Shown here in pieces: positions 5,736 through 49,155 of a DNA stretch of 64,000 bases (positions are counted from its first letter, which is position 1; every line of letters begins with the position of its first letter). The DNA lies in the NCBI GenBank assembly GCA_964371045.1, contig CAYJMN010000004.1:59794-123793 (forward strand), in the 5' to 3' direction. This stretch comes from an uncultured Chromatiales bacterium. GTDB taxonomy: Bacteria > Bacteroidota > Ignavibacteria > SZUA-365. The translations under genes were made by a program, and so were the position numbers. The notes beneath the pieces are model-generated. The model was not told the DNA's origin. It ran no database searches and saw only the letters and a list, made by a program, of their open reading frames with translations.

Positions 5736-5739
5736 GAGG

Positions 5740-10990: not shown

Positions 10991-10997
10991 TGGAGAG

Positions 10998-15957: not shown

Positions 15958-15974
15958 GTTACTTATCCGCTATA

Positions 15975-19825: not shown

Positions 19826-22800
19826 TCACAATTTCGTAACCCGCCTTACCAGCACGGCATCGCCAAGCAACGCGACGAGATAGTACACGCCTGGCTTGCG
19901 GTCGCGGAGGGAGTGGGTAAATACCGCACCGCCATCCGGCAGGATACCGGTGTGGATGATTTCTGCACGGCCGAGTACATCGTAGAGAGCCAAGGTAACG
20001 GTTTGATTTTCCGCGCCGGTAAGCCCGATGCGCAGCATATCAGCCACTGGTTCGGGGTACACATTCAGCACGGCGCCTTCAGCGACAGGCGGCACGTCGT
20101 TGACATCGAGCACTGCGACGTTGAATGGATCGGACATGGCCGAGCAGCCTTCCGCATTGGTGACCCGGACCTGATAGACGCCGGTTTGCGTCAGCGCGAG
20201 CAGCGGGCCGGTTGCGCCGGGCATGAGAACGCTGTTCCGATACCATTGATACTGATGCGCCGTGTCGGTTCGAATAACATCCCCGAGGCGGCGGATGACG
20301 GGCTTCGCGGGTGACGGTTTCATCGAGACCGTTACGGTATCCGAATTGCCCCAGCAGTTGTCCGTACTGCGGACGCGCACATGATAACTTCCCGCGGCAG
20401 TTACGTCGATGCCGGGCGTTGTTGCACCGGTGCTCCATTCATATTCCGCATAGCTGCCCGTGGTCCGCAGCGTGACCGCTTCTCCTTTGCAGATGGCAAC
20501 AGGATTGCCCGGCGTGATGACCGGCACAGGGAGCTGATACACCGCGACGCGAACCGTGTCGGAACGGCCATACACACCATCGCTGCGACGGACGACGCAG
20601 GAGTAGTCACCTGAACGCTTGACGATGATTTGCTGTGTCTGTTCGCCGCCCATCCAAAGGTACGACGCGTATCCGCTCCCCGCATCGAGAATGACGGAAT
20701 CGCCTTCGCAGAACGCCAGCGGGCCGTTGGCTGTGAGTTGTACATCGAAGCTCTGAGGCGGGAGACCAGGGATGCGCAGTTGGACTTCGCATTTGCTGGA
20801 ATCGGTGTTCGTCGAATATGTCCACACGGTGATGGTGTAGGTTCGCTCCGTCTCGACAGGTGCGTGCAGCAACATCCATGTTACGTTTCCGCTCTGGGTT
20901 GGATTAAGCATCGGGGGTAGCAGATGCTTTGTAAAGCGGTTCGGGGCGTCGGGCGCTGCGAGCGAGAACTCCGGTGGCAGGACAATACTCGTCAACACCG
21001 TGTCCGTTAACATGCCGCCGGTGTTCAGCGCTGTTACGGTGAGTGGAAAGGGCATGGGTGAATAGCGCAGGTTTACTGTATCTGCTGTGATGTTCGGTAC
21101 ATCGATGTCGCATTCGAGCATCGGTCCTGTACGCTGAATGTACACCTTCAGGCAGCATGTCACATCCGGGTAGTTGTCGAAGCTGCTTTGAATGCAAATT
21201 TCGACAGAATCCCCGGAGGTCCGTTTTTTCGCCGCCAGCTGCCAGGTCACTTCCGCAAACATCCCCGAGGCGATATCCGCCGGTGTGGGAGTTTGTGTGC
21301 TAGTGGCAGGCGAAATCAGGCTGACTGCATTCGTGTCCACGATGATTCTGTAGATCGCATTCAGCAGTGTTGTATCGCCGACATTGTCAAAGCGCCCTGT
21401 GACCACGAAGGGATTCGGATAGTAGTCCTTGAGCGTGCGCTTCCACTCCAGGCTCGTCGGGCCGGTGATACCACAGACAGCGTTTGGCTGTTTGGGATAG
21501 ATGCAGATTCTGCCTGTATCGACAATCGGTCTGAAGCACCCCTGCTCAAACTGCGGATTCACTCCGCGAATCTCGCAGCACGTCGTGTCAAAAGGATCCG
21601 ACGCCTTGAACGTAAACTCCATCAAAACGCCGCTCCCGTTCAAGAGCTTGCGGTCCATCACCTGGATCAGCGCGCCCGTCGGTACCGGCGTCACCGAGAT
21701 CGGCAGGCCATCGAGTAGTGTGCTCGGGGTCGTCGACACGCTTTTGAACTGCATACACAAGGGATTGAACTCCAGCGTGAACTGGAAGGGGTAGAACATC
21801 TCGCCGTTGATAGGTGTGAGGAGGGTCAGGGGTATCGTGATGCCGTCACCGCTTTTCGCGACAGCATCGCCGAGCTTCATGTTGAGATTCGAGTATGTCG
21901 ATGAATCCAGGGGGGCGCGGTAGGTTTTTATCTTCGTGTCGGTTCCCCCGCAGAAATCCTTCAACTGCAATTCCACCGTCCGCAGGGCACCGTCCATGCA
22001 ATCATCTTCGTAGGTAATCACACAATCCTGGAAACTCTGCCGAAGTATGCCGAAAATTTCCTGATATATCGCCGCGAGCTGACCGGAATTCGGCGTCTGA
22101 TAGAATTTTCCGCCCGTCAGCTGGGCGATGAGTTCCAGTTCCACCGTATTGATGCCGGTACCAATGCCAACGGTGAATACACGGATTTGGTGGCGGTCGG
22201 CCAGTGCAATAATCTCCGACGGCTGACGGCCGGATGCATTGTCTCCGCCATCGGTCAGCAGGATCACTGCCCGGCACTGGTTCACCCCGTTATTGATCAG
22301 CTCAATCAGGCCAGCGTAGCCGCCGTCCCAGACCGCCGTCGCACCATTGGCAGGAAGCGCATCCACCGCTGAATGCAGCCTGGTCGTGTCCGTAGTCATT
22401 TGCTGCTGGATTATCACCGTCGAATTGAACCATAGCACCGAGGCTTCGTCGATGTTGCCGTCCATTAGATCGATGAAGGCATGGCCCGCCTGTTTCGCGC
22501 CGGCATTGCCGGATCCAATCATCGATCCTGACGCGTCGAACACAAGCGACACCGATATAGCGCAGGGGATGGTGGGATTAGGGCACGACAACGTGAAATT
22601 CTTGACCTCGACGCCGTTCTCGAAAATCCGGAAATCCTGCATCGACATGTTGTACGCCGGATTGCCGTCGCAGCCGACGGAGAAATACAGCTCGATGGTT
22701 GGCCAGTTGACGGTCACCCGTTTGAACGTCAGGTTCGGTTGCGCCTGTACGATCGGCGCGGCGAGACAGATGACAAGCAGAAGCGCGGAATGCCGCCACG

Positions 22801-22831
22801 CGTTACTATTGGATTTGCCCGGAAACTTCAT
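19826..22831 (-). CDS. Paralogue 1 of 5 (1001 aa): signal peptide, vWA domain with MIDAS, Cys-rich beta-sandwich region, SprB/Ig-like repeats and a T9SS C-terminal domain. A surface adhesin-like protein
   Basis: The vWA reads ...CAISVSLVFDASGSMIGSGNAGAKQAGHAFIDLMDG...AVILLTDGGDNASGRQPSEIIALADRHQIRVFTVGIG..., with an intact DxSxS. Repeats of the form ICKGEAVTLRTTGSYAEYEWSTGATTPGIDVTAAGSYHVRVRSTDNCWGNSDTVTV follow. The CTD is ...LNVYPEPVADMLRIGLTGAENQTVTLALYDVLGRAEIIHTG...GVYYLVALLGDAVLVRRVTKL. Confidence 0.9.
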   Translation of the reverse strand: MKFPGKSNSNAWRHSALLLVICLAAPIVQAQPNLTFKRVTVNWPTIELYFSVGCDGNPAYNMSMQDFRIFENGVEVKNFTLSCPNPTIPCAISVSLVFDASGSMIGSGNAGAKQAGHAFIDLMDGNIDEASVLWFNSTVIIQQQMTTDTTRLHSAVDALPANGATAVWDGGYAGLIELINNGVNQCRAVILLTDGGDNASGRQPSEIIALADRHQIRVFTVGIGTGINTVELELIAQLTGGKFYQTPNSGQLAAIYQEIFGILRQSFQDCVITYEDDCMDGALRTVELQLKDFCGGTDTKIKTYRAPLDSSTYSNLNMKLGDAVAKSGDGITIPLTLLTPINGEMFYPFQFTLEFNPLCMQFKSVSTTPSTLLDGLPISVTPVPTGALIQVMDRKLLNGSGVLMEFTFKASDPFDTTCCEIRGVNPQFEQGCFRPIVDTGRICIYPKQPNAVCGITGPTSLEWKRTLKDYYPNPFVVTGRFDNVGDTTLLNAIYRIIVDTNAVSLISPATSTQTPTPADIASGMFAEVTWQLAAKKRTSGDSVEICIQSSFDNYPDVTCCLKVYIQRTGPMLECDIDVPNITADTVNLRYSPMPFPLTVTALNTGGMLTDTVLTSIVLPPEFSLAAPDAPNRFTKHLLPPMLNPTQSGNVTWMLLHAPVETERTYTITVWTYSTNTDSSKCEVQLRIPGLPPQSFDVQLTANGPLAFCEGDSVILDAGSGYASYLWMGGEQTQQIIVKRSGDYSCVVRRSDGVYGRSDTVRVAVYQLPVPVITPGNPVAICKGEAVTLRTTGSYAEYEWSTGATTPGIDVTAAGSYHVRVRSTDNCWGNSDTVTVSMKPSPAKPVIRRLGDVIRTDTAHQYQWYRNSVLMPGATGPLLALTQTGVYQVRVTNAEGCSAMSDPFNVAVLDVNDVPPVAEGAVLNVYPEPVADMLRIGLTGAENQTVTLALYDVLGRAEIIHTGILPDGGAVFTHSLRDRKPGVYYLVALLGDAVLVRRVTKL

Positions 22832-22869
22832 TCCTCACTCCTTGGCCAATAAGAGGATATAATGACACC

Positions 22870-22898
22870 ATTGTATGAAGAAATGGCACGAATGTCAA
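22870..22898 (-). promoter_or_regulatory. Sigma70-like promoter of paralogue 1: TTGACA, a 17-nt spacer, then TACAAT, with AAGGAGTGAGG as the Shine-Dalgarno
   Basis: On the gene strand the sequence is TTGACAttcgtgccatttcttcaTACAATggtgtcattatatcctcttattggccAAGGAGtgaggaATG. A homologous TTGACA-17-TACAAT lies upstream of paralogue 4 (about 33680-33710), and a TTGACA-17-TACTGG upstream of paralogue 2 (about 26715-26745). Confidence 0.45.
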
Positions 22899-23251
22899 CA
22901 TGCGGAGCGCAGAGATCTCTACGATAAAAGGAGATCCGCACAATGTGGCTCCGCCGCGATAGTCCTCGTCGATTTTTATCGCCGAGGGCACAGAGGGCGC
23001 GGAGGGCACCGAGATTTCTTTAAATGTTTCATTTACCTTAGTCTGTGGCTGTCCGAGGTCTTAGTTTCCAGAACAATGCGCGTAGCTGGTATTTCGGCTT
23101 GCTCTTTTCAACTCAAAGGAAACCTTCCGAGATGCGCCCTCAAATTTCTCTCTGTGCCCTCGGCGATCTCGGCGATCTCTGCGATAAAAAGAGATCCGTA
23201 CAATCTTGCCCTTCCGCGTTTCTGCGTTATATTCTTCTCTGCGTCTCCGAT

Positions 23252-26200
23252 TTACATTTTTGTTACCCGCTTCACCAGCACGGCATCGCCAAGCAACGCG
23301 ACGAGATAGTACACGCCTGGCTTGCGGTCGCGGAGGGAGTGGGTAAATACCGCACCGCCATCCGGCAGGATACCGGTGTGGATGATTTCTGCACGGCCGA
23401 GTACATCGTAGAGAGCCAAGGTAACGGTTTGATTTTCCGCGCCGGTAAGCCCGATGCGCAGTACATCGGTCGCAGGCTCCGGCCAAACGTTCAGCAATCT
23501 ACCTTCTGCGATTGCCGGTTCATGCCCGGTTTCGAGCACGGTGACGCCGAACGGATCGGACATCGCCGGACAGCCCTCTGCATTGGTGACCTGGACCTGA
23601 TATTGTCCCGACTCTGTGACGCTCAGCGACTGGCTGGATGCGGACGGAAGCTGGAGACCGTTTCGGTACCATCGGTACGAAACCGCCGGATCGGTGGACA
23701 ATACATTGCCGTTTCGCTGGACGCCGGGTTTAGGCGGCGACGGTTTTTTCGTTACAACGACAGTATCGGAAAGATTGCGGCAACCGGCGCTATTGCTGAC
23801 CTCAACATAGTAGCTGCCGGCAGTTTTAACTGAGATTCCCGGAGTCATCAGCCCGTTGTTCCACAGGTAGCTCAGGAAACCGCTTCCTACGGAAAGGAAC
23901 ACCGAGTCTCCTTCACAAATCTCCGTCGATCCTGTGATGACCAACCGCGCGTATGGTTTCGGCAGGAAGGTAATCACCACGGTGTCGGAAATCCCGGTGC
24001 ACGTGAGAGAGCTGCTCACCCGTACATAATACGTGCCGGGCGCTGTCACGATTATGCTTGAGTCGGTGCTTCCGTTACTCCACTGGTACGACGGGTAGAT
24101 GCCGCTGACAGACAGATGAAGCGAATCGCCTTCGCATAGCGTTCTCGATCCGATTGGAAATATCCGCGGTGTGAGATTGCGAAGCACTGTGACTACCACC
24201 GTATCGGATTCCCCCATGCAGAAAGGTCTGTCGCCAACACGCACATAATACGCCCCCGATGCCCTCACTATAATGTCCGGATTCGTGCCGCCGTTGCTCC
24301 ATTGGTATGTCTGATAGCTTCCGGAGACGGATAATCGGAGAGAGTCGCCTTCGCAGATCGTCGTCGGTCCGCTGACGTTGAGGCGCGGAGATGGCCTTGG
24401 AGAAACCGTTACCTGAACCGTGTCGGAGTATCCGATGCTTCCGTTTGCCTGTTGCACTGTGCAAAAATACAAACCCGCTGCTGTGATCGGGACGCGCTGC
24501 GTTTGCGGGCCATGCGACCATCGATAGGATGCGTAGCCGTTCCCGGCGTCAAGTATCACGGAATCCCCCTGGCATAATGCGGTCGAACCCTGCGCCGCAA
24601 GTTTGAACGCGAATCTGTTTAGCACATATCCCGGAATGGTAATGTTCACCTCGCATTTTGATGAATCCGTATTCGCCGTTTTCACCCAGACAGTCACGGT
24701 GTAATGCTTATCTGCATCCGAATGGGGATGATGCACCATCCATGCCAGATTTGCGCTCTGACCGGGATTCAGTTGCGACGGTACCATGCTCTTGGTGTTG
24801 CGGTCCGGAGCATCAGGGTATGCGAGTTCGAGATCCGGCGGCAGGATGATGGATGCAAACATCGGTTCGGTCTGCATCAGGCCTGTGTTGTTTGCAGTGA
24901 CCGTAATCGGGAACGGCATCGGATCGTACCCGGAATTCACCGTATCCGCGATAATGACGGGCGCATCAAGCGCACAGTCCACGAGAGGCCCGGTTTGCGG
25001 AATGAACACGTTCGTGCAACATATCACATCAGGATGATTGTCGAACGATGCGGTGATGCAAATCATTGTCGAGTCGCTGCTCGCCCGGCAGTTCGCGGCA
25101 AGCTGCCACACTGCTTCGCTTTCCCCTGCTGGCTGCACATCCGGAGGCGAAGCAGCCTGAACATCGGCCACGGGTGCGGCCAGTCTCAAGGTTGCAGTAT
25201 CGAATGCGATTCTGAAGCGAGCATTGCGTGCTTCCTTGTCACCAACGTTCAGGAGCACTCCCCTGACGGGGAAAGGACTTGGCGTGTAATCCTTCGCCAG
25301 CTTATTCCACGTCAAACCTGGTACACGTTCGATTCCGCAGTAGACTTCGGGGAGTCTGGGAAGAATGCAGATTTCACCCGGAGTAATTACAGGACTGAGG
25401 CAGCCTTGCTCGAACACGGCATTGCTGCCGTAGATACCGCAGCATAGGGTGTCGTCGGGATCGGACGCCCGGAACTGTAATTCAAGGAGCAATCCGCTGC
25501 CGGAAATCAACTTGCGGTCGTTGATACGGATCAGGCTTCGCATGGCAATGGTCGTTACCGACAAGGGCAGGCCTTCGATCAAGGAACCCGGGGGAGTCGA
25601 TACGCTCAGCAGCTTCGCGCACGATGTGTCGTGTTCAAGTGTGAATTCGAACGGAAAAAACATTTCGGCGTTGAGTGGCGTGAGCAGGTTCAGCGGAATC
25701 GTAATCGTGCCGTTGCTTGCAACGCTGCCTCTCCCCAGTTCCAGCGAAAGTGTCCTGAACGTCGAGGTGTCCCTCAAGGCCAGGTACTGCTTTGTTTCCG
25801 TGTCCGTCCCGCCGCAATAATCCTTCAGCCGTAGCTCGACCGTGCGCAGACCGCCGTCCGCGCATTCACGATCATAGGCAATCATGCATTCCCGGAAACC
25901 TGAGGCGACGATTCCGGATATTTCCTGATAGATCGCCGCCAGTTGTCCCGGATCAGCCGTCTTGTAGACCCTTCCGCCCGTCGTCGGTACAACATATTCG
26001 AGCTCGTTCGTGTTGAAATTTGTCCCCAGTGCGATTGTGAACAGACGAATGTGATGCTGTCTCGCCAGCGCCGCATTCATCTGCGCTTCTGCTATGCTTG
26101 AATTATCGTATCCATCCATCATCACGATAAGCGCGCGGTACGGGTTGACTCCGTTGCTGATCAACTCAAGCAGACCTGCATGCACGCACTCCCACATACA

Positions 26201-26704
26201 CACTTCGCCGCCAATGGGCAGGGAATCCACGGCGGAATGCAGCAGCGCTTTACTGGTCGTAATCTGCTGTCGAATCGTCACCGCCTGTCCGAACCAGAGA
26301 ACCGCGGCTTCGTCTGACACGCCGTTCATTGCATTGATGAACGCATGCCCAGCCTGCTTCGCGCCGGCATTCGCGGAAGCGGTCATGGAACTGGTCGCGT
26401 CAAAGACCAATGCTACCGAGCCAATGCAGCGTACTGCCGGATTCGGGCACGTGAGCGTGAAATCCGTCACTTCAATTCCATTTTCGTGGATACAGATATC
26501 CTGCTTCGTCATGCTGAATGACGGATTGCCGCCGCACTCAGCCGAAAAGAACAATTCAATCGTCGGCCAGTTGACGGCCACCCGCTTGAACGTCAGTTCC
26601 GGCTGCGCCTGCACCTGCACAAACGGCGCGGCGAGACAGATGATGATCAGCAGCGCTGCGTATTGCCACGCGTTACGATTGGTTTTGCCCGGATACTCCA
26701 TCAC
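23252..26704 (-). CDS. Paralogue 2 of 5 (1150 aa), same architecture with extra Ig/SprB-like repeats
   Basis: Same vWA (...SVALVFDATSSMTASANAGAKQAGHAFINAMNG...). Its last 65 codons are nucleotide-identical to those of paralogue 1 (23268-23463 equals 19840-20035). Confidence 0.9.
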   Translation of the reverse strand: MMEYPGKTNRNAWQYAALLIIICLAAPFVQVQAQPELTFKRVAVNWPTIELFFSAECGGNPSFSMTKQDICIHENGIEVTDFTLTCPNPAVRCIGSVALVFDATSSMTASANAGAKQAGHAFINAMNGVSDEAAVLWFGQAVTIRQQITTSKALLHSAVDSLPIGGEVCMWECVHAGLLELISNGVNPYRALIVMMDGYDNSSIAEAQMNAALARQHHIRLFTIALGTNFNTNELEYVVPTTGGRVYKTADPGQLAAIYQEISGIVASGFRECMIAYDRECADGGLRTVELRLKDYCGGTDTETKQYLALRDTSTFRTLSLELGRGSVASNGTITIPLNLLTPLNAEMFFPFEFTLEHDTSCAKLLSVSTPPGSLIEGLPLSVTTIAMRSLIRINDRKLISGSGLLLELQFRASDPDDTLCCGIYGSNAVFEQGCLSPVITPGEICILPRLPEVYCGIERVPGLTWNKLAKDYTPSPFPVRGVLLNVGDKEARNARFRIAFDTATLRLAAPVADVQAASPPDVQPAGESEAVWQLAANCRASSDSTMICITASFDNHPDVICCTNVFIPQTGPLVDCALDAPVIIADTVNSGYDPMPFPITVTANNTGLMQTEPMFASIILPPDLELAYPDAPDRNTKSMVPSQLNPGQSANLAWMVHHPHSDADKHYTVTVWVKTANTDSSKCEVNITIPGYVLNRFAFKLAAQGSTALCQGDSVILDAGNGYASYRWSHGPQTQRVPITAAGLYFCTVQQANGSIGYSDTVQVTVSPRPSPRLNVSGPTTICEGDSLRLSVSGSYQTYQWSNGGTNPDIIVRASGAYYVRVGDRPFCMGESDTVVVTVLRNLTPRIFPIGSRTLCEGDSLHLSVSGIYPSYQWSNGSTDSSIIVTAPGTYYVRVSSSLTCTGISDTVVITFLPKPYARLVITGSTEICEGDSVFLSVGSGFLSYLWNNGLMTPGISVKTAGSYYVEVSNSAGCRNLSDTVVVTKKPSPPKPGVQRNGNVLSTDPAVSYRWYRNGLQLPSASSQSLSVTESGQYQVQVTNAEGCPAMSDPFGVTVLETGHEPAIAEGRLLNVWPEPATDVLRIGLTGAENQTVTLALYDVLGRAEIIHTGILPDGGAVFTHSLRDRKPGVYYLVALLGDAVLVKRVTKM

Positions 26705-26873
26705 TCACTCCCAGTATGAAAAAATGGCAGGATTGTCAACGTGCGGAGCGCGGAGAGCGTAGAGTGATGCGCACTCGGCGATCTCTGCGATAGAAGGAAA
26801 TCCGCACAATGTGGCCACCTGTAACGACATAAGTCCTTGCTGCTGTGTTCCATTGTGCGGGTCAACTTTTAAT

Positions 26874-27156: not shown

Positions 27157-30100
27157 TCACAATTTCGTAACCCTCTTCACCAGCACGGCATCGCTGAGAA
27201 TCGCGACGAGATAGTACACGCCGGGCTTGCGGTCGCGGAGGGAGTACATGAAATCCGGCGAATCACCCGCGAGCATTCCTTTGAAAATCACCTCGGTGCG
27301 TCCAAGGATGTCGCAGAGCATCAGCGTCACGGCCTGCGCTTCAGAACGACCAAGGGAAATGTGCAGCGCGTCGCTGGCGGGTTCCGGATACACCAAGAGC
27401 GCGGGACTTCCCGCGATCGGCTGTTCGTCGTCGATGCCGAGTACGGTGACGATGAAATCATCGGAGCATACGGTGCAGCCCTCCGCGTTCGTAACGCAAA
27501 CCTGGTAGCGTCCCGTCCCGGTGAGGACCAGGAATTGATTTGTCGCGACAGACAACTTGACGCCATCTCTGTACCATTGGTAGGCGTGTTCAGGGCCGGT
27601 AGTCAGCACATCGCCATTGCGCTGAATGATGGGCTTCGCGGGAACCGGTTTGGTTGTGACGACGACGGTATCCGAGTAGCCCCAGCAGCTGTCCGCGTTG
27701 CGTACCCTCACATAATATGATCCGGCTGTCCTGGCGGTGATGCTCGCACTCGTTGCTGCGTTGCTCCATTGATACTGCGAAAAAGATCCGACGACACTGA
27801 GCTGTACCGAATTGCCTTCACAGAATGGTATCGATCCGCTGACGGACAGCCTGGGGGCCGGTGTCGGCAGGACAGTTACGTGGATGGTATCGGATATCCC
27901 CCTGCGACCGTCCGGGTGCTGGACGACGCAGAAATAGTCTCCGCTTGTCTCAACCTGAATGCCCCGGGTCTGGCGTCCATTTGACCAGTGATAAGAGGTA
28001 TAGCCCGGGCCTGCGTCGAGGATGACGGATTGACCGTCGCAGAAACGCAAGGCGCCATCGGCCTGGAGTGTCGTCGTGAAATCTTTCGCCGGTAATCCGG
28101 GAATGATAACATCGATTTCACATTTCGACGAATCTCCATCGCGGGTCACAATCCAGACGATCACCGTGTATCTGCGTTCGACTGTTGAATGCGGGTGCGT
28201 GACCATCCATGACGTGCTGTCGGTATCCCCTGGAAACCCAAACCAGGGCATCACTATTTTCGTATGCTGATTCGGAGCGTCGGGTGCGGCCAGTTCAAGA
28301 TCGTTCGGCAGGACGATGGTGGCACGGGCCGAATCCGTATCCGTGCCTCCGTTATTTGTTACCGTGACCTTTAGCGGGAACGGCATTGGCACGTTCCGGA
28401 AAAACAGGCTGTCCGCTATGATTGACGGAGCGTCCAGCGAGCACTCGAGAATTGCCCCTGTCTGCGGTATGAATATCTTCATGCAGCACGTCACGTCGGG
28501 ATGGTTATCAAAACTGCTCCTGATACAGATGTCAATCGAATCGGCGTAGAGTCTAAGCCCTGGTTCGAGCTGCCAGGTCACATCCGTATGTGTCAAGGGT
28601 CCGATATCAGCCGGCGAGAGGACTTGCGTATCCGAGAGGGGCGATACGAGCCGCACCTCCGATGTATCGAAGAGGATTCGGTATCGGGCGTTCAGGGCCG
28701 CCGCATCGCCTGTGTTGCTCACGCGCGTCGTGATGCTGAACGGATTCGGGCTGTAGTCCCTGATATCCCGCCGCCAAAGGAGACGATCGGGACCATTGAT
28801 GTCGCAGGAGATTGACGGCAGTGTGGGGTAGATGCAGATCTCGCCGGGATCGATGACCGGTACGAAACAGCCTTGTTCGAAGACCGGATTCGCACCACGG
28901 ATTTCGCAGCAGGAAGTATCCGATCGATCGATCGTTCGAAACGTGAATTCCATAAGCGTGCCAGTCCCGGCGAGCGGCTTGCGACCCGACACCTCGATCA
29001 GCGCTCCCGCCGCCGTCGGCGTCACCGCGATCGGAAGGCCTTCAAGCAACGAGCCCGATGGGGTCGCGACGCTCTTGAGCTTCACGCAGGATGTGTCGTA
29101 CTTCAGCTCGAAGTGGAAGGGGTAGAACATTTCGCCATTGACCGGTGTGCGGAGATTCATGGGTATCGTGATGTCGGTCCCGCTCATCCCGACAGCATTG
29201 TCAAGCTCCATTGTTAGACTCGAGAAAGTTGACGAATCAAGGGGTGCGCGGTAGGTCTTGGTCTTCGTGTCGGTTCCGCCGCAGAAATCCTTCAATTGCA
29301 GATCCACAGTTCGCAGGGCGCCGTCTTCGCAATCACGATCATACGTGATGACACACTCCTGGAAACCCTGGCGAAGCATGGTGATAATCTCCTGATACAT
29401 CGCCGCGAGCTGGCCGGCGTTCGTCGTCTGATAGAATTTTCCGCCAGTCACCTGTGCGACCAGCTCGAGTTCCACAGTATTGATGCCGGAACCAATGCCG
29501 ACGGTGAACACCCGGATGCGGTGGCGGTTGGCCAGCGCGATGATCTCTGAAGGCTGCCGCGTCGAGGAATTGTCGCCGCCGTCCGTCAGCAGTATGACGG
29601 CGCGGCATTGATTCACGCCATTGTTGATCAATTCGATCAAGCCTGCGTAGCCGCCGTCCCACACCGCCGTCATTCCACTCGCTGGCAGAGCGTCCACCGC
29701 CGAATGCAGCATGGGTTTGACTGTTGTCATCTGTTGATATGGCGTCACGACAGACGTGAACCAGATTACCGTCGCTTCATCGATCACGCCGTCCATCAGG
29801 TCGATGAACGCGTGGCCAGCCTGTTTGGCGCCCGCATTGCCTGAACCACTCATCGACCCGGATGCGTCAAACACGAGTGACACCGAGATAGCACATGGGA
29901 TGGTGGGATCGGGACACCACAGCGTGAAGTCCTTTACCTCCACGCCGTTTTCGTAGATGCGGAAATCCTGTTTCGACATGTTGAACGCTGGATTGCCGTC
30001 GCAACCGACCGAGAAATACAGCTCGACCGTCGGCGAGCTCGCTGTCACGCGTTTGAACGTCAGGTTCGGCTGCGCTTGCAGCAGCGCAAGCGGCGCGGTG

Positions 30101-30168
30101 AGACCGATGATAATGATAAGCGCGGCGAATGCCAGCGTCTTCAGGGTGAATGTCCCGGAACTCTCCAT
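27157..30168 (-). CDS. Paralogue 3 of 5 (~1003 aa from ATG 30168, i.e. MESSGTF...), same architecture
   Basis: The ORF finder opens at TTG (30192). The ATG at 30168 is preceded by GAGGAG. The N-terminal ~315 aa are identical to paralogue 4. Confidence 0.9.
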   Translation of the reverse strand: MESSGTFTLKTLAFAALIIIIGLTAPLALLQAQPNLTFKRVTASSPTVELYFSVGCDGNPAFNMSKQDFRIYENGVEVKDFTLWCPDPTIPCAISVSLVFDASGSMSGSGNAGAKQAGHAFIDLMDGVIDEATVIWFTSVVTPYQQMTTVKPMLHSAVDALPASGMTAVWDGGYAGLIELINNGVNQCRAVILLTDGGDNSSTRQPSEIIALANRHRIRVFTVGIGSGINTVELELVAQVTGGKFYQTTNAGQLAAMYQEIITMLRQGFQECVITYDRDCEDGALRTVDLQLKDFCGGTDTKTKTYRAPLDSSTFSSLTMELDNAVGMSGTDITIPMNLRTPVNGEMFYPFHFELKYDTSCVKLKSVATPSGSLLEGLPIAVTPTAAGALIEVSGRKPLAGTGTLMEFTFRTIDRSDTSCCEIRGANPVFEQGCFVPVIDPGEICIYPTLPSISCDINGPDRLLWRRDIRDYSPNPFSITTRVSNTGDAAALNARYRILFDTSEVRLVSPLSDTQVLSPADIGPLTHTDVTWQLEPGLRLYADSIDICIRSSFDNHPDVTCCMKIFIPQTGAILECSLDAPSIIADSLFFRNVPMPFPLKVTVTNNGGTDTDSARATIVLPNDLELAAPDAPNQHTKIVMPWFGFPGDTDSTSWMVTHPHSTVERRYTVIVWIVTRDGDSSKCEIDVIIPGLPAKDFTTTLQADGALRFCDGQSVILDAGPGYTSYHWSNGRQTRGIQVETSGDYFCVVQHPDGRRGISDTIHVTVLPTPAPRLSVSGSIPFCEGNSVQLSVVGSFSQYQWSNAATSASITARTAGSYYVRVRNADSCWGYSDTVVVTTKPVPAKPIIQRNGDVLTTGPEHAYQWYRDGVKLSVATNQFLVLTGTGRYQVCVTNAEGCTVCSDDFIVTVLGIDDEQPIAGSPALLVYPEPASDALHISLGRSEAQAVTLMLCDILGRTEVIFKGMLAGDSPDFMYSLRDRKPGVYYLVAILSDAVLVKRVTKL

Positions 30169-30389: not shown

Positions 30390-33300
30390 TTACATTTTCG
30401 TCACGCGCTTCACCAGCACGGACTCGCCAAACACGGCGACGAGATAGTACACGCCGGCGTCGCGGCTGCGGAGTGAATAGCTGAATTCCGTGGCGTCTCC
30501 TGAAAGTCCGCCGCTGTATATCACCTCTGCCCGACCGCGGATGTCGTAGAGCACAAGGGTCGCCGCCCGGGCTTCGCAGTGACGGAGGGCGATGCGCAAG
30601 ACGTCGGTTGCAGGCTCGGGCCAAGCTTCAAGCGCGGCGCGTTCCGCAATCGGCATTTCGTCGCCGATGCCGAGTAAGGTGACGTTGAACGGATCCGACA
30701 TAGCGGAGCAGCCTTCGGCGTTGGTGACCTGTACCTGGTAGACACCGGTTTGCGTCAGCGCGAGCAGCGGGCCGGTTGCGCCGGGCATGAGAACGCTGTT
30801 CCGATACCATTGATACTGATGCGCCGTGTCGGTTCGAATAACATCCCCGAGGCGGCGGATGACGGGCTTCGCCGGAGCGGGCTTCATGGTGACCGTCACG
30901 GTGTCCGAGATGCCCCAGCAGTTCTCCGCACTGCGTACGCGCACATGATACCGTCCGGCGGCAGTTACATCGATGTCGGGCGTCTTTGCGCCGGTGCTCC
31001 ATTCGTATTCGGCAAAACTGCCGGTGGTTCGCAGCGTAACAACATCGCCCTTGCAGATCGAAACAGGATTGCCCGGCGTGATGACGGGCTTCGCCGGATC
31101 AGGCTTCATGGTGACCGTCACGGTGTCCGAGATGCCCCAGCAGTTCTCCGCACTGCGTACGCGCACATGATACCGTCCGGCGGCAGTTACATCGATGTCG
31201 GGCGTCTTTGCGCCGGTGCTCCATTCGTATTCGGCAAAACTGCCGGTGGTTCGCAGCGTAACAACATCGCCCTTGCAGATCGAAACAGGATTGCCCGGCG
31301 TGATGACGGGTATCGGGAGGGGATGCACCGTCACACGCACCGTGTCGGAACGGCCATAAAAACCGTCGGCGCGACGGACAATACAAGAGTACTCACCCGA
31401 ACGCGTAACGGAGATCTGTTGCGTCCTCTCGCCGCTTTGCCAATTGTATGACGCGTATCCGCTTCCTGCATCGAGAATGACGGAATCGCCTTCGCAGAAT
31501 GTCAGTGGCCCGGTGGCTGTGAGTTGTATATCGAAGTCCTGTGGCGGGAGACCGGGAATGCGGACCGAAATCTCACATTTCGATGAATCGGCATTCGAGG
31601 CGAAGGTCCACACCGTTACCGTGTAATTCCTCTCGGCCGTTGTCGGCGCGTGCTGCAGCATCCACGGAATACTCCCACTCTGTTGCGGTACGAGCACCGA
31701 GGGCATGATGCGTTTTGTATATCGGTCGGGTGCGTCGGGTGCCGCCAGGGTCAGCTCCGGTGGCAATACGATCGAGGCCCACACAGTGTCCGTGCGTGTG
31801 CCGCCCGTGTTTATGGCCGTAACCGTGAGCGGGAACGGCATCGGTGTGTAACGGAGCTGGATGCTGTCCACCGTGATCGGCGGCACATCGACCGCGCACT
31901 CGAGCACGGGTCCGGCCGTCGGAATAAACACACGCATTGCGCAGAGTACATCCGGGTAGTTGTCGAAGCTGCTGAGAATGCCGATATCAACCGAATCCGC
32001 AACTGTACGCCGCTTTGCCGCGACTTGCCATGACACGTTCGCATAGCCGCCAGGATCGATATTCGACGGGCTTATTACCTGCGTTTCAGTAGCAGGTATA
32101 AGCAGCTGAATGTCGGAACTGTCATAGATTATCCTGTACCGCGCGTTTTGCAGGGGTGCATCTCCGGGATTGTCGCAGCGTCCGATAATGACGAAGGGAT
32201 TCGGCTGGTAGTCGCCGAGTGATCGTCTCCACATCAGGCTCTTTGGTCCGGTGATGTCACAAAAGGCGCTGGGAGTTTTCGGATACACGCAGATCCTGCC
32301 GGTATCGATGACTGGTCTGAAGCAGCCCTGTTCAAAAAGGGGATTCACCGCCAGAATATCAGAGCAGCAGGTATCCGCTCTGTCGCTGGCCCTGAACGCA
32401 AGATTCAGAAGCAGACCGCTGCCGTTTAGCAGCTTTCGGTCAAGCAACTCTATCGTGGCGCCTGTGGAAATCGGCATTATCGTGATCGGCACACCCTCCA
32501 GCAGGGACCCCGTCGGCGCCGTTGCGTTTTTGAGCTGCACGCAGGATGTGTCGTACTCCAGCTCGAAGTGGAAGGCGTAGAACATTTCGCCATTGATCGG
32601 TGTGCGGAGATTCATGGGTATCGTGATGTCGGCCCCACTCTTCCCTACAGTGTCGCCAATTTCCATTGTTAGATTCGAGAAAGTTGACGAATCAAGGGGT
32701 GCGCGGTAGGTCTTGGTCTTCGTGTCGGTTCCGCCGCAGAAATCCTTCAATTGCAGATCCACAGTTCGCAGGGCGCCGTCTTCGCAATCACGATCATACG
32801 TGATGACACACTCCTGGAAACCCTGGCGAAGCATGGTGATAATCTCCTGATACATCGCCGCGAGCTGGCCGGCGTTCGTCGTCTGATAGAATTTTCCGCC
32901 AGTCACCTGTGCGACCAGCTCGAGTTCCACAGTATTGATGCCGGAACCAATGCCGACGGTGAACACCCGGATGCGGTGGCGGTTGGCCAGCGCGATGATC
33001 TCTGAAGGCTGCCGCGTCGAGGAATTGTCGCCGCCGTCCGTCAGCAGTATGACGGCGCGGCATTGATTCACGCCATTGTTGATCAATTCGATCAAGCCTG
33101 CGTAGCCGCCGTCCCACACCGCCGTCATTCCACTCGCTGGCAGAGCGTCCACCGCCGAATGCAGCATGGGTTTGACTGTTGTCATCTGTTGATATGGCGT
33201 CACGACAGACGTGAACCAGATTACCGTCGCTTCATCGATCACGCCGTCCATCAGGTCGATGAACGCGTGGCCAGCCTGTTTGGCGCCCGCATTGCCTGAA

Positions 33301-33623
33301 CCACTCATCGACCCGGATGCGTCAAACACGAGTGACACCGAGATAGCACATGGGATGGTGGGATCGGGACACCACAGCGTGAAGTCCTTTACCTCCACGC
33401 CGTTTTCGTAGATGCGGAAATCCTGTTTCGACATGTTGAACGCTGGATTGCCGTCGCAACCGACCGAGAAATACAGCTCGACCGTAGGCCAGTTGACCGT
33501 GACGCGTCTGAACGTCAGGTTCGGCTGCGCATGGAGCTGCGTAAGCGGCGCGGTGAGACAGATGATAATGATAAGCGCGAAAAGCCATCGCGTTGTTGTG
33601 CTAAAATTGCCGGACCTCTTCAT
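30390..33623 (-). CDS. Paralogue 4 of 5 (~1077 aa from ATG 33623, i.e. MKRSGNF...). It contains an internal perfect 74-aa domain duplication
   Basis: The ORF opens at TTG (33662). The ATG at 33623 is preceded by GGAGGGTG. vWA, repeats and CTD as in the others. Confidence 0.9.
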   Translation of the reverse strand: MKRSGNFSTTTRWLFALIIIICLTAPLTQLHAQPNLTFRRVTVNWPTVELYFSVGCDGNPAFNMSKQDFRIYENGVEVKDFTLWCPDPTIPCAISVSLVFDASGSMSGSGNAGAKQAGHAFIDLMDGVIDEATVIWFTSVVTPYQQMTTVKPMLHSAVDALPASGMTAVWDGGYAGLIELINNGVNQCRAVILLTDGGDNSSTRQPSEIIALANRHRIRVFTVGIGSGINTVELELVAQVTGGKFYQTTNAGQLAAMYQEIITMLRQGFQECVITYDRDCEDGALRTVDLQLKDFCGGTDTKTKTYRAPLDSSTFSNLTMEIGDTVGKSGADITIPMNLRTPINGEMFYAFHFELEYDTSCVQLKNATAPTGSLLEGVPITIMPISTGATIELLDRKLLNGSGLLLNLAFRASDRADTCCSDILAVNPLFEQGCFRPVIDTGRICVYPKTPSAFCDITGPKSLMWRRSLGDYQPNPFVIIGRCDNPGDAPLQNARYRIIYDSSDIQLLIPATETQVISPSNIDPGGYANVSWQVAAKRRTVADSVDIGILSSFDNYPDVLCAMRVFIPTAGPVLECAVDVPPITVDSIQLRYTPMPFPLTVTAINTGGTRTDTVWASIVLPPELTLAAPDAPDRYTKRIMPSVLVPQQSGSIPWMLQHAPTTAERNYTVTVWTFASNADSSKCEISVRIPGLPPQDFDIQLTATGPLTFCEGDSVILDAGSGYASYNWQSGERTQQISVTRSGEYSCIVRRADGFYGRSDTVRVTVHPLPIPVITPGNPVSICKGDVVTLRTTGSFAEYEWSTGAKTPDIDVTAAGRYHVRVRSAENCWGISDTVTVTMKPDPAKPVITPGNPVSICKGDVVTLRTTGSFAEYEWSTGAKTPDIDVTAAGRYHVRVRSAENCWGISDTVTVTMKPAPAKPVIRRLGDVIRTDTAHQYQWYRNSVLMPGATGPLLALTQTGVYQVQVTNAEGCSAMSDPFNVTLLGIGDEMPIAERAALEAWPEPATDVLRIALRHCEARAATLVLYDIRGRAEVIYSGGLSGDATEFSYSLRSRDAGVYYLVAVFGESVLVKRVTKM
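30857..31300. repeat. Near-perfect 222-bp x 2 in-frame tandem duplication inside paralogue 4, duplicating one 74-aa SprB/Ig-like module
   Basis: 30857-31078 and 31079-31300 are identical except for about 3 nt (GAGCGG versus GATCAG), giving PVITPGNPVSICKGDVVTLRTTGSFAEYEWSTGAKTPDIDVTAAGRYHVRVRSAENCWGISDTVTVTMKP(D/A)PAK twice. Confidence 0.85.
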
Positions 33624-34026
33624 CACACCCTCCACGGCGAATAAGAAGATATAATGATACAATTGTATAAAGAAAGAATTCTAATGTCAAGACGTTGCAG
33701 AAAAGCGAAGCGCAGAGCGCAGCGAGCGATGCGCCCTCAAATTTCTCTCTGTGCCCTCGGCGATCTCTGCGATAAAAGGAGATCCGCACAATCTGGACAA
33801 TCGCAGTAAGACAAGGCCTCGTTGATTTTTATCGCCGAGGGCACAGAGGTCGCCGAGGGCACGGAGATATATATAAATGTCTCATTTACTTGGGTCTGCG
33901 GCTGTCCGGGGTCTTAACATCGAAAATCGTCCCGTCTTCGCTTTCGTTTACCGACGGTTGTGGCATGTACCGTTGATGCCTCGGCGGGCGTTCCGCAATC
34001 AAAAATCGTCACTCGTCACTCGTAAA

Positions 34027-37000
34027 TCACAATTTCGTCACACGCTTCACCAGCACGGACTTGCCCAGCAGCGCGACGAGATAGTACACACCGGCTTCGC
34101 GACCGTGTAGGGAATGGGTGAATACCGCAGCACCGTCCTCCAATACGCCGCTGTGGATCACCTTCGCACGGCCGAGCACATCGTAGAGCGCCAGGGTAAC
34201 CGTCTGGGCTCCCGTTCCGCCAAGCTCGATGTGCAGCATATTTTCCGCCGGCTCCGGATATGCCACGAGCACCGCAGGATCCGCCACCGGCGGTACCTCT
34301 TCAGCGTCGAGCACGGTGACGTCGAATGGATCGGACATCGCCGAGCAGCCGTTCATGGACCTCAACCTCAGCTGATAGCGGCCGGTTTCACGTAGCTTGA
34401 TACTGCCGTACCCCGAATCCGGCAACAGCACGCCATCGCGGTACCAGTAGAATCCTCCGATATCGCTCTCGGCAATGAGCCAATCGAGGTTGCGGCGGAT
34501 CCTGGGTTTGGATGGAATGGGTTTTGTGGTGACAAGCACGGTATCGGAGTAACCCTCGCAATCGTAATTGCTGCGCACCCGTACAAAATATGCGCCCACT
34601 GAGTGAACAGTGATGACCTGTTCCGTTGCTCCGGTGTTCCAGAGATAGCTGGTGTAGCCGCCGCCCGCGTCGAGACGCACGGAATCGTATTCGCACATGG
34701 GAATCGATCCGTTTACCGCAATCCGTGGCGTTGGATTCCAGGTAACCGTCACCCGCACCGTATCGGAAAATCCGATGCTGCCATCGCCGTGCTCCACCTT
34801 GCAGAAATAGTTGCCTCGCTGTTTCACGGTCAGCAATCGATCGCGAGAACCGTCGGACCAGCGATATGAGGTATAACCCGCCCCTGCATCCAGCACCACC
34901 GAGTCACCCTCGCAGAATACCATCGGTCCGAGAGCTGTAAGTGTGAATGCGAAGGTGGAGACGGGGAGACCCGGGATGGTTATTCCGATGCTACAACGCG
35001 TCGAGTCGGCGTTGGCGGTGTTCAGCAGCACTGATACCAGATATTCCCTGTCTGTATTGCTCCGCGGATGCTGAAGCTGCCAGGAAACACTCGCGGTCTC
35101 GAGTGGTGCCATCGTTGCGGGAAACAGCAGCTTGGTGTAGGAGTCGGGTGCATCCGGCCCGGCCAGGTCGAGATCCATCGGCACGTCGATTGTCGCCCAT
35201 ACGGAATCGGTGGGGGAGGGGCCGAGGTTTGTCGCAGCAAGTGTCACCGTGAACGGCATGGGCGTGTAGCGCAGATTGGCGCTGTCCGCGGTGATCGGCG
35301 GTGCAAAGAGCTGGCAGTCGAGAAGGGGTTCCATCATCGGAATGTACACCTGCTGGCAGCAGACGACATCAGGATGATTGTCGAAGCTCGCGGTGATGCA
35401 GATACGCGTCGTATCGCCGGCTGAACGGTGGACAGCCCGGATATACCAGGAAACGTACTCGACGGAGTTCGTGGCGATGACGCCGGTGCTTCCCCCCTTT
35501 GTATCGGTCTTGGGAGAATACAAGGTCACATCAGCGGAATCGTAGGTGATCCTATAGCGGGGTTGCAGTGCTTCGGCGTCGCCGGTGTTGGAAAAGTGAG
35601 CTCCGATTGTGAAGGGATTCGGATAGTAATTACGCATTCCCCTCATCCATAGAAGTTCGGAAGGACCGCTGATTTCACAGGTGATTATTGGAGTATCCGG
35701 CTGGATGCAGATCCGTCCGTCCGCGATGACCGGCATGAAGCACCCCTGCTCGAAGGAAGCGGCCACGGGTTTCAGCTCGGTACACGCTGAATCAGCCGAT
35801 GTCTTCGTCCGAAAATTCAGTTCCATCAATGTCCCGCTGCCGCTGAGCAGTGTCGGCGCCGCGGTCTGAATCGTCGCGCCGCTTGCGGTGGGCGTCCACG
35901 ATATCGGTACCCCTCTGAGCAGATGTGTCGGATCGGTCGTGGCATGTTGCAGCTCGACAAGCGCGGTATCAAATTCCAGTGTGAACCGGAAGGGGAAGAA
36001 CATGGCGTCGTTGACGGGCGTGATCAGCCGCAGCGGAATGGTCGCATTCGTGCCGCGGCCATTGACCGAACTGCCCAACTCCATATGCAGAGTCGAAAAA
36101 GTAGAGGAATCCAGCGGAGCCCTGAAGGTTTTGAACTTTGCATCGGACCCGCCACAGAAATCCTTCAGCTCCAGCACAACGGTACGCAATGTGCCGTCCG
36201 CGCAGCCGTTATGATATGTGATGAGGCATTCATTCCAGCCAAGGAACATGATCGTGGATATTTCCTGATAGATCGCGGCCAACTGACCCGCGTTCGGGGT
36301 CTGATAGTATTTGCCGCCGGTCGACGATGCGATCAGTTCCAGCTGCGTCGCATCTATGCTCATACCCAGGCCAATTGTGAATACACGGATGCGGTGGCGG
36401 CTCGCAAGAGCGATGACGTCATCTGGAGTTCGCGTAGATGCCTCGTCAGCGCCATCGGTCAGCAGAATCACAGCACGGCACTGGTTCACGCCGTTGTTGA
36501 TGACTTCGATCAGACCGGCATAGGCACCGTCCCATGCGGCCGTTACTCCATTTGCCGGCAGCACATCGACCGCGGAATGCAGCAGTGTTTTGTCACGTGT
36601 CATCGATTGCATCACTGTGACAACGGAAGAAAACCAGAGTACGGAGGCCTCGTCGACGAATCCGTCCATGAGATCGGCGAAAGCGTGGCCTGCCTGTTTC
36701 GCGCCTGCATTGCCGCTGCCAGCCATCGATACGGAGGCGTCGAAGACCAAAGCCACCGACACCGGGCAGCGTGCGATCGGGTCGGGGCACCACAGGGTTG
36801 AAGGCGCCATCTCTACGCCGTTTTCGAAGATCCGGAAATGCTGCAGCGTCGCGTGGTAGGCTGGATTGCCGTCACAGGAGATGGAGGAGTACAGCTCAAT
36901 TGTCGGTCCGTTTACCGTGATGCGCTTGAATGTCAGGTTCGGCTGCGCTATGGCCGACGATCCAAACGCGACCAGAAGGAGAAGGATCCATTGGGCGGGA

Positions 37001-37080
37001 CGCAGCGGGAGGCGGGAGGTGCTCACAATTTTCACAGCGTGACTCATTGACAACATGTTCTCATAAAATACCGATATCAC
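34027..37080 (-). CDS. Paralogue 5 of 5 (1017 aa), the most divergent copy, with the same architecture
   Basis: vWA ...VSVALVFDASVSMAGSGNAGAKQAGHAFADLMDG...AVILLTDGADEASTRTPDDVIALASRHRIRVFTIGLG. CTD ...LVAYPEPAENMLHIELGGTGAQTVTLALYDVLGRAKVIHSG...GVYYLVALLGKSVLVKRVTKL. Its upstream region lacks the shared promoter module. Confidence 0.85.
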   Translation of the reverse strand: MISVFYENMLSMSHAVKIVSTSRLPLRPAQWILLLLVAFGSSAIAQPNLTFKRITVNGPTIELYSSISCDGNPAYHATLQHFRIFENGVEMAPSTLWCPDPIARCPVSVALVFDASVSMAGSGNAGAKQAGHAFADLMDGFVDEASVLWFSSVVTVMQSMTRDKTLLHSAVDVLPANGVTAAWDGAYAGLIEVINNGVNQCRAVILLTDGADEASTRTPDDVIALASRHRIRVFTIGLGMSIDATQLELIASSTGGKYYQTPNAGQLAAIYQEISTIMFLGWNECLITYHNGCADGTLRTVVLELKDFCGGSDAKFKTFRAPLDSSTFSTLHMELGSSVNGRGTNATIPLRLITPVNDAMFFPFRFTLEFDTALVELQHATTDPTHLLRGVPISWTPTASGATIQTAAPTLLSGSGTLMELNFRTKTSADSACTELKPVAASFEQGCFMPVIADGRICIQPDTPIITCEISGPSELLWMRGMRNYYPNPFTIGAHFSNTGDAEALQPRYRITYDSADVTLYSPKTDTKGGSTGVIATNSVEYVSWYIRAVHRSAGDTTRICITASFDNHPDVVCCQQVYIPMMEPLLDCQLFAPPITADSANLRYTPMPFTVTLAATNLGPSPTDSVWATIDVPMDLDLAGPDAPDSYTKLLFPATMAPLETASVSWQLQHPRSNTDREYLVSVLLNTANADSTRCSIGITIPGLPVSTFAFTLTALGPMVFCEGDSVVLDAGAGYTSYRWSDGSRDRLLTVKQRGNYFCKVEHGDGSIGFSDTVRVTVTWNPTPRIAVNGSIPMCEYDSVRLDAGGGYTSYLWNTGATEQVITVHSVGAYFVRVRSNYDCEGYSDTVLVTTKPIPSKPRIRRNLDWLIAESDIGGFYWYRDGVLLPDSGYGSIKLRETGRYQLRLRSMNGCSAMSDPFDVTVLDAEEVPPVADPAVLVAYPEPAENMLHIELGGTGAQTVTLALYDVLGRAKVIHSGVLEDGAAVFTHSLHGREAGVYYLVALLGKSVLVKRVTKL

Positions 37081-49145: not shown

Positions 49146-49155
49146 GGCGGCCTCC

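Follow-up and report, generated by a model that had tools for sequence, protein, structure and literature searches.

Architecture of the array and its proteins

The DNA analysed here is a stretch of 64,000 nucleotides (nt) from an assembly labelled as an uncultured Chromatiales bacterium (GCA_964371045.1, contig CAYJMN010000004.1), referred to below as the window. It carries on its minus strand, at 19826-37080, an array of five long open reading frames (ORFs) arranged head to tail, g1 to g5, whose products combine a von Willebrand factor type A (VWA) domain with a C-terminal domain (CTD) of the secretion system of type IX (T9SS). We consider it likely that the locus is a tandem family of adhesin-like proteins with T9SS CTDs, in which domain modules were converted between copies in the past and in which an 811-nt perfect identity between two copies is an assembly collapse. 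The start codons used are those of the public gene calls for the same contig, and the genes are as follows (lengths in amino acids, aa).

19826-22831, minus strand: g1, 1001 aa; signal peptide, beta-sandwich, VWA domain at aa 92-264 with DASGS at the metal-ion-dependent adhesion site (MIDAS), cohesin-like sandwich at 314-445, two further sandwiches, three immunoglobulin (Ig)-like repeats and T9SS type-A CTD at 921-1000
23252-26701, minus strand: g2, 1149 aa; the most divergent paralogue, with five Ig-like repeats and a degenerate MIDAS
27157-30168, minus strand: g3, 1003 aa; paralogue with a CTD marginally below the TIGR04183 cut-off
30390-33623, minus strand: g4, 1077 aa; four Ig-like repeats, including a near-identical internal duplication of 222 nt
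34027-37047, minus strand: g5, 1006 aa; part of no exchange tract

A preliminary description of this DNA had reported five tandem, co-directional VWA paralogues with T9SS CTDs, and the ORFs together with matches to PF00092 and TIGR04183 bear this out. The VWA profile PF00092 scores 31.9-40.9 bits in all five proteins (gathering cut-off 23.8), and TIGR04183, the T9SS type-A sorting domain, reaches 30.4, 35.4, 23.3 and 35.5 bits in g1, g2, g4 and g5 (cut-off 23). Judged by the TIGR04183 / PF18962 C-terminal domain, the proteins belong to the T9SS type-A CTD cargo, with g3 as a marginal member. Using the g1 VWA region and the g1 CTD as tblastn queries, we found exactly five VWA copies in the 64-kb window together with five related CTDs. 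The length differences between the proteins stem from Ig-like repeats of 74 aa, of which g1, g3 and g5 have three, g4 has four and g2 has five. The MIDAS motif DxSxS reads DASGS in g1, g3 and g4 and DASVS in g5, each accompanied by TAVWDG and LLTDG motifs. A Sec signal peptide was read from the sequence in 5/5 proteins, each with a hydrophobic h-region and (V/L/A)xAQP behind it.

An AlphaFold2 model of g1, calculated from a 40-sequence family alignment, has a mean pLDDT of 86.7. Behind the signal peptide and a small beta-sandwich it places the Rossmann-like alpha/beta fold of the VWA domain (aa 92-264), another sandwich and the cohesin-like domain (314-445), the latter supported by cohesin matches in Pfam-type and PDB-sequence profile searches; two further sandwiches, three Ig-like domains and a seven-stranded CTD sandwich (aa 921-1000) complete the chain. 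In the profile search of PDB sequences, the solved T9SS CTDs 8qb1 and 8glj match the CTD of the array. A Foldseek search of the whole g1 model against the PDB returned generic multi-Ig, integrin and Mfa5 matches only, with low TM-scores and no functional assignment. Based on their domain content, the proteins are predicted to be secreted, surface-anchored and adhesin-like.

Identity between the paralogues is patchy

In a codon alignment of the five genes, from which all exact tract lengths were derived, three pairs of paralogues share long tracts.

19848-20035, minus strand: tract (a), g1 copy; 188 nt inside the CTD, exactly equal to g2 23274-23461
23274-23461, minus strand: tract (a), g2 copy
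20181-20308, minus strand: tract (b), g1 copy; 128 nt within the final Ig-like repeat, exactly equal to g4 30745-30872
30745-30872, minus strand: tract (b), g4 copy
29075-30124, minus strand: tract (c), g3 copy; 1050 nt at 97.3% identity to g4, with an exact 811-nt core at 29220-30030
32530-33579, minus strand: tract (c), g4 copy; exact core at 32675-33485

In all other gene pairs the longest exact match is at most 22 nt. The preliminary description had put tracts (a) and (b) at about 195 and 140 identical nt. Exact tracts do exist in both places, although they are shorter, and the boundaries given for them were out of register, by 2 nt in the case of tract (a), so that read literally they align only 48/196 and 37/134 matching positions. 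The positions it gave for tract (c) are right.

The identity is therefore patchy rather than uniform, as had been described, and sliding-window plots bear this out: outside the tracts, the pairs g1/g2, g1/g4 and g3/g4 are 45-85% identical. The pair g3/g4 is 100% identical over the head and drops to 55-65% past it, g1/g4 runs at 80-95% over the Ig stalk and 57-70% elsewhere, and g1/g2 reaches 100% in the final window compared with 46-81%, mostly 50-70%, elsewhere. Tract (b) sits in a 409-nt stretch at 88.5% and forms the centre of a g1/g4 stalk region whose identity is 75-95%, and the CTDs of g1 and g2 are 92% identical overall, including the 188 exact nt.

The perfect identity of g3 and g4 behaves as a collapsed repeat

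At least 23 public contigs, with metaSPAdes-style names and from many ENA samples, code for proteins identical to g1 and g2, and contigs of this set measure 89,935, 62,226, 55,043 and 51,764 bp. For comparison with the window we fetched 14 loci in which about ten other metaSPAdes assemblies represent this locus; eight of the 14 span 23 kb including g2 and the spacers. Across these eight loci, only three sites vary in 23 kb outside two repeats (19656, 19895 and 26799), and the remaining differences are confined to these repeats, namely tract (c) and the 222-nt internal repeat of g4.

Tract (c) contains 50 variant sites, and each g3 variant is mirrored at +3455 in g4 in every assembly that holds both genes. 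The sites fall into block A (29302-29497, 21 sites), block B (29572-29773, 24 sites) and block C (29931-29971, 5 sites), which combine freely, with 7/8 combinations seen among eleven assemblies. Each alternative block occurs in about half of the assemblies, as is expected at 1:1 coverage for two copies in one genome. Within the blocks, identical runs between neighbouring variant sites do not exceed 53 nt, whereas the runs between blocks, or between blocks and the fixed flanking differences, measure 59, 74, 82 and 157 nt. The largest k used by metaSPAdes by default is 55. In a de Bruijn graph with k=55, paralogues sharing exact stretches of at least k would merge into one path with three bubbles, each bubble would be popped at random at 1:1 coverage, and the consensus would then be written twice because the sole traversal of the graph is flank-R-middle-R-flank. 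Mirrored, freely combining blocks with boundaries that fit k=55 thus point to bubble-popping in a collapsed two-copy repeat.

The 811-nt perfect identity of g3 and g4 is hence very probably an artefact of short-read assembly, and of the earlier claim of about 830 nt at 100% what stands is an exact 811-nt match in the window, the perfection of which is not reproduced across assemblies. When opposite alleles are assigned to the two genes at all 50 sites, tract (c) has 93.8% identity and the encoded amino acid differs at 19 of 270 codons, so that the true identity of g3 and g4 in this tract appears to be about 94%, with some 50 real differences. A mixture of strains as the source of the blocks was rejected, since the variation is found only in the repeat, is always mirrored and occurs in free combinations rather than as 000/111.

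Tracts (a) and (b) are free of mirrored variants in every assembly, and tract (b) is invariant; for this reason both are probably genuine. At 19656 and 19895 the window has C and all 14 fetched loci have T. With T at 19895, tract (a) matches at 187/188 positions, the C of the window making g1 equal to g2 there, and the corresponding g2 site is constant throughout the eight loci that were compared over g2. The C found at both sites only in the window suggests that the window derives from a different assembly or sub-population.

The second repeat behaves like tract (c):

30853-31310, minus strand: internal tandem duplication in g4 of one 222-nt (74-aa) Ig-like repeat, 98.7% identical

Its variants at 30963, 30985 and 30990 have mirror images at +222, and a public contig stops at 31088 inside the repeat, which leaves both the sequence and the copy number of the 222-nt repeat uncertain.

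Perfect identity between paralogues in short-read metagenome assemblies should consequently not be taken at face value. The comparison across assemblies exposes mirrored variant blocks and offers a check that needs no reads and is widely applicable.

Evidence for past gene conversion between the copies

Neighbour-joining trees of gene segments, which included the three paralogues of the syntenic relative GCA_027493955.1, group (g3,g4) in the head with 100% bootstrap support, (g1,g4) in the stalk with 99-100% and (g1,g2) in the CTD with 100%. These three groupings are mutually incompatible, and they are unchanged when the alternative haplotype is assigned to g4. A Sawyer-type permutation runs test on concordant polymorphic sites gave p<0.0005, the floor of the test, for g1/g2, g1/g4 and g3/g4 only; the other seven gene pairs are unremarkable, and the result is the same before and after haplotype correction. 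Chance is thereby ruled out as the source of the tracts. Besides, the synonymous divergence dS is saturated or above 1.5 over most of every pair and approximately zero inside the tracts. The patches of high identity lie within coding sequence with diverged DNA on both sides, and neither spacers nor promoters are shared, a pattern expected of conversion patches and not of duplication junctions. Past interlocus gene conversion, i.e. non-reciprocal exchange between the paralogues, is well supported by these sequence comparisons, and in this respect the gene conversion between tandem copies proposed in the preliminary description is upheld.

Selection on the protein does not account for the tracts. 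Strong purifying selection on the VWA domain and the CTD would agree with the VWA region being the most conserved part in every pair (nonsynonymous divergence dN about 0.1), but synonymous sites are identical in the tracts and saturated in the same domains of other pairs, and only one pair per segment is affected. Protein-level selection cannot produce this contrast, and we regard the explanation as refuted.

Given the collapse in tract (c), one could suspect that all tracts are assembly artefacts and that the paralogues are in truth uniformly diverged. Tract (c) and the 222-nt repeat of g4 indeed show collapse, a contig breaks inside the array at 31088, and many family members lie at contig ends in public metagenome-assembled genomes (MAGs). 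Even so, maximally different haplotypes leave g3 and g4 at 93.8% over the 811 nt compared with about 58% elsewhere, the tree and runs tests survive the correction, and tracts (a) and (b) lack the mirrored variants that random 1:1 bubble popping would yield. Moreover, a collapse needs pre-existing exact repeats of at least k and so cannot create similarity from diverged sequence. An artefactual origin of all tracts is therefore very improbable; the artefact that the preliminary description had itself named as a possible objection is very probably real for the perfect identity in tract (c), while the mosaic persists after haplotype correction and tracts (a) and (b) are stable.

A history of duplication alone, in which unequal crossovers and chimeric or partial duplications took place at different times without any gene conversion, deserves more weight and is still unlikely in our view. 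It is in keeping with copy numbers of 3, at least 4 and 5 among syntenic relatives, with a head segment in which g1, g3 and g4 all cluster with hC, one gene of the three-copy relative, and with a 5.9-kb duplication at 97.9% in another family locus (L035, below). It fits poorly with patches that lie inside coding sequence, are diverged on both sides and exclude spacers and promoters, and three different pairs with tracts of different apparent ages are involved. Judging from gene order, a simple unequal crossover between g3 and g1 would also not place a chimera of g3 head and g1 stalk upstream of g3.

Under gene conversion, the array would have grown by tandem duplication, relatives holding 3 or at least 4 copies, and would later have been patched in units roughly following modules, with exchange of the head in the pair g3/g4, of the Ig stalk in g1/g4 and of the CTD in g1/g2. 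We infer the direction and age of these events from the sequences; with about 6% divergence since, the g3/g4 event would not be recent, and the g1/g2 CTD patch and the g1/g4 stalk patch would be younger. The stable tracts of 188 and 128 nt suggest that some exchange was fairly recent.

Several points weigh against the combined reading of a T9SS adhesin family with past module conversion and a collapsed repeat. The TIGR04183 score of g3 (21.0 against a cut-off of 23) falls just short. The MIDAS of g2 is degenerate, with DATSS in place of DxSxS and Val in place of the conserved downstream Thr, so that the intact MIDAS earlier ascribed to all paralogues holds for g1, g3, g4 and g5. No T9SS machinery gene was identified within the 64-kb window; at least five further CTD-bearing ORFs there lend indirect support to a T9SS in this genome. 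The collapse is deduced from the comparison of assemblies and not seen directly in reads, and one genome does not suffice to tell gene conversion strictly apart from double crossovers or partial duplications of greater age.

Related arrays in other genomes

The five genes belong to a large, uncharacterised family that occurs in MAGs under the labels Bacteroidota, Bacteroidia or Ignavibacteria, where its members have no annotation beyond 'VWA domain-containing' or 'T9SS type A sorting domain-containing' protein. Of the genomic loci fetched, 25 carry 2-5 co-directional copies, and most arrays of the family have no tract of at least 100 nt at 90% identity or more. The closest complete relative, GCA_027493955.1 (5.24-Mb contig), has a syntenic array of three copies only, flanked as in the window by the 1083/1084-aa CTD protein and the 210/214-aa gene, with the RND (resistance-nodulation-division) pump farther out, and no exact tract longer than 15 nt was found among these three copies. 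The orthologue of g5 is the first gene in the arrays of the relatives; in GCA_027493955.1 this gene is hA, with a nucleotide identity of 69% that changes rather little over its length. In the head segment, g1, g3 and g4 all group with one gene of that genome, hC. The genome of loci L092/L093 holds at least four copies. Two neighbours among them, jA and jB, have CTDs at 92% identity, compared with 62-69% elsewhere, and both jA/jB and jC/jD share exact 74-nt runs. Copy numbers of 3, at least 4 and 5 among relatives imply that the number of genes changes between close relatives, and partial homogenisation is, by these sequences, recurrent in the family and not universal.

Some further loci of the family deserve mention. 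L035 (JADKJW01, with tig... contig names that suggest long reads) contains a 5.9-kb direct duplication at 97.9% (2858-8722 against 11872-17755) that includes a VWA paralogue; it was dropped as an independent long-read test, its ORFs being fragmented, probably by frameshift errors. In L052, neighbouring copies share a 306-nt tract at 97.4% (10924-11229 against 14507-14812). Across loci L020-L091, many family members sit on short contigs or run into contig ends in short-read MAGs, which suggests that assemblies often break at members of this paralogue family. Among the host MAGs, several bear the label Chromatiales or Ectothiorhodospiraceae, and the closest relatives of their proteins occur in MAGs labelled Bacteroidota or Ignavibacteria, suggesting binning or labelling errors.

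Comparison with known systems

The preliminary description had gone further and proposed a system of ongoing conversion resembling antigenic-variation loci. An active diversification system of this kind, in which segmental conversion among five expressed copies continually generates new adhesin mosaics, is compatible with tracts of 188 and 128 nt that are exact or nearly exact and stable in all assemblies, with tracts that follow domain modules, and with the CTD homogenisation of neighbours that recurs independently in a relative (jA/jB). We nevertheless consider it quite unlikely. Its chief support, and the ground for calling the conversion ongoing, was the 811 nt at 100%, which is now explained as a collapsed repeat. 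The 14 fetched loci share one mosaic with no alternative junctions and only mirrored bubble variation, with the restriction that consensus assemblies may miss rare variants. Donor cassettes, truncated or promoterless, are missing, as is a dedicated recombinase beside the array, and at least g1 and g4 have strong sigma70-like promoters of their own. The closest complete relative lacks any tract, and so do most arrays of the family at the length and identity given above. The hosts also appear to be environmental, one relative coming from a benzene-degrading enrichment culture (PMC11465867), which weakens a case for immune-type selection.

In the classical loci, Neisseria pilE/pilS, Borrelia vlsE and Anaplasma msp2, one expression site is combined with silent partial cassettes and switches at high frequency. 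The array shares with them segmental, non-reciprocal transfer among related surface-protein sequences within one locus, but it consists of five complete genes, each with signal peptide and CTD, with no silent donors and no evidence of switching.

Closer precedents exist among T9SS-exported proteins, and the locus is thus less novel than had been supposed (PMC5266723, PMC8313007, PMC4404884). In Porphyromonas gingivalis, Mfa5 is the tip protein of a type V pilus and combines signal peptide, VWA domain, Ig-like domains and a T9SS CTD with T9SS-dependent export; in some strains there are tandem mfa5-1/mfa5-2 genes that have the C-terminal half in common and diverge in their N-terminal parts (PMC8313007, PMC7835359). 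The likeness to the array comprises VWA, Ig-like and CTD domains and a Foldseek match to the Mfa5 crystal structure 6to1 (E 3.8e-11). However, the similarity is at the level of domains only (9% identity), the PDB-sequence profile search gave no Mfa5 match, and Mfa5 is a pilus accessory encoded in the mfa fimbrial operon, whereas no fimbrial genes flank the array and its neighbours do not form an mfa1-5 type V pilus operon. The array moreover has five copies, a cohesin-like domain and 74-aa Ig repeats of the CHU_C-associated type.

Adhesin modules of the P. gingivalis gingipains and HagA, likewise exported by the T9SS, are exchanged by homologous recombination, and antigenic or functional variation has been discussed (PMC5266723). 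Both cases present mosaic paralogues and alleles of T9SS-exported surface proteins; the gingipain and HagA genes, though, are dispersed, belong to unrelated families (proteases, haemagglutinins) and exchange largely between strains, in contrast to a tandem array in an apparently environmental, uncultured host. The KLIKK proteases of Tannerella forsythia are neighbouring T9SS cargo genes with nearly identical CTDs (PMC4404884), which parallels the 92% identity of both the g1/g2 and the jA/jB CTDs, and the CTD of mirolase (8qb1) matches that of the array. They differ in that the KLIKK proteases are of different catalytic classes and share only the C-terminal region, whereas the array genes are paralogous over their full length. 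The top Foldseek matches finally were to the grappling-hook protein GhpA of Aureispira (PDB 9flp and others), and the profile search of PDB sequences places the stalk repeats in the same Ig-like repeat family (E 4.5e-147, 18 stretches); GhpA is a filament protein of 5898 residues, and the likeness is limited to the Ig-like stalk repeats and uninformative on function.

We therefore see the locus as an uncharacterised but ordinary multigene family of surface proteins under occasional concerted evolution and not as a new variation system. It documents a large family of VWA-headed T9SS surface proteins, typically in co-directional arrays of 2-5 genes, with exchanged domain modules. The uncultured Bacteroidota/Ignavibacteria-type MAGs of the family stem in part from wastewater and enrichment-culture metagenomes. 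Our data add no new mechanism but provide background for studies of adhesion or floc formation in these organisms.

By analogy with characterised cargo such as Mfa5 (PMC8313007, PMC7835359), each protein would probably be exported by Sec and then pass through the T9SS via its type-A CTD, which would be exchanged for a lipopolysaccharide anchor at the cell surface, where the presumably metal-dependent VWA head on the Ig-like stalk may bind a ligand. Whatever benefit module exchange may bring is, like these steps, something that we infer. In a more far-reaching and rather doubtful scenario, module-wise exchange of VWA head, Ig stalk and CTD would be a recurrent and selected mode of T9SS-adhesin diversification across the lineage, CTD homogenisation would keep the proteins compatible with secretion, and the spacers with 18-nt inverted repeats would act as insulators or recombination boundaries.

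Spacers, promoters and neighbouring genes

The following elements lie between the genes of the array.

22870-22898, minus strand: sigma70-like promoter before g1, TTGACA-17-TACAAT, 11/12 matches
33662-33690, minus strand: sigma70-like promoter before g4, TTGACA-17-TACAAT, 11/12 matches
22905-23251, minus strand: g2-to-g1 spacer; its composite repeat consists of a 23-nt direct motif and of perfect 18-nt inverted repeats (ATCGCCGAGGGCACAGAG) separated by 154 nt

The promoters of g1 and g4 are the two best sigma70-type matches in the 18-kb region, and g2 has a weaker copy that abuts the ribosome-binding site; each gene of the array is probably its own transcription unit. The composite repeat, which is specific to this lineage, occurs in 3/4 spacers (22832-23251, 26702-27156 and 33624-34026) and nowhere else in the window. 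Its perfect 18-nt inverted repeats are 154, 165 and 66 nt apart, thus flanking 66-165 nt, with 18-nt tandem copies on one side, and the 23-nt direct motif ATTGTRCGGATCTCYTTTTATCG is present in five copies in the spacers. The 16-mer CGCCGAGGGCACAGAG occurs 10 times against 0.07 expected by chance, and as RNA the spacer between g2 and g1 has a better fold than its shuffled versions (z = -3.4). A search of the arrays of relatives found no spacer motif beyond this organism; a scan of metagenomes with the 18-mer gave 62 single-copy matches on 62 contigs from many metagenomes, which we take as chance. The element may be a terminator, an insulator or a small mobile element. Phase variation by an inverton was rejected, as the strong promoters lie outside the inverted repeats and eight other assemblies show no flipped orientation.

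Directly past the stop codons of g1, g3 and g5, short tandem repeats of GATTGAC / TTTACGA were observed (19770-19825, 27112-27156 and 33995-34026). Downstream of g1, at about 19675-19700, a reverse-complement repeat AATCGTAAATCGTAAATCGTAAA could pair with the tandem repeats into a long hairpin.

The surroundings consist of an RND efflux pump, a PIN/RHH pair (RHH, ribbon-helix-helix), hypothetical proteins and other CTD proteins, and neither a recombinase nor a silent cassette was found adjoining the array.

838-2106, minus strand: DDE_5 transposase (E 2.7e-76), the only mobile-element gene seen in the window and far from the array
17929-18560, plus strand: FitA-like toxin-antitoxin pair of the RHH / PIN-domain type, with the RND efflux operon (11798-15957) on one side and the array on the other
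18810-19442, minus strand: 210-aa gene just downstream of the array, with a signal peptide and no Pfam match
47089-47161, minus strand: SAM-II (SAM_alpha, RF00521) riboswitch match in Rfam, 37.9 bits against a gathering cut-off of 36

The FitA-like pair is absent from the syntenic region of GCA_027493955.1. The 210-aa protein ends in ...GYMHRFF, like the terminal aromatic signature of outer-membrane beta-barrels. Its gene is kept in the same position in two other close genomes (62-63% identity) and is not found beside more distant arrays; it was rejected as a family-wide partner, since its presence in only the three closest genomes reflects synteny rather than an association with the family.

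Weak to moderate Por_Secre_tail matches mark at least five further ORFs of the window, among them those of one beta-helix protein, one S41 peptidase and, transcribed divergently from g5, a 1083-aa protein. The ORFs behind the Por_Secre_tail / FlgD_ig matches lie at 3687-5735, 37396-40647, 40789-42459, 48063-49463, 49156-54201 and 55202-57157; a sixth ORF, of 1681 aa, has only a FlgD_ig match, at its C-terminus. By these matches the genome appears to be rich in T9SS cargo. The SAM-II match overlaps the annotated start of a YkuD L,D-transpeptidase ORF (46329-47153), an unusual downstream gene for a SAM (S-adenosylmethionine) riboswitch.

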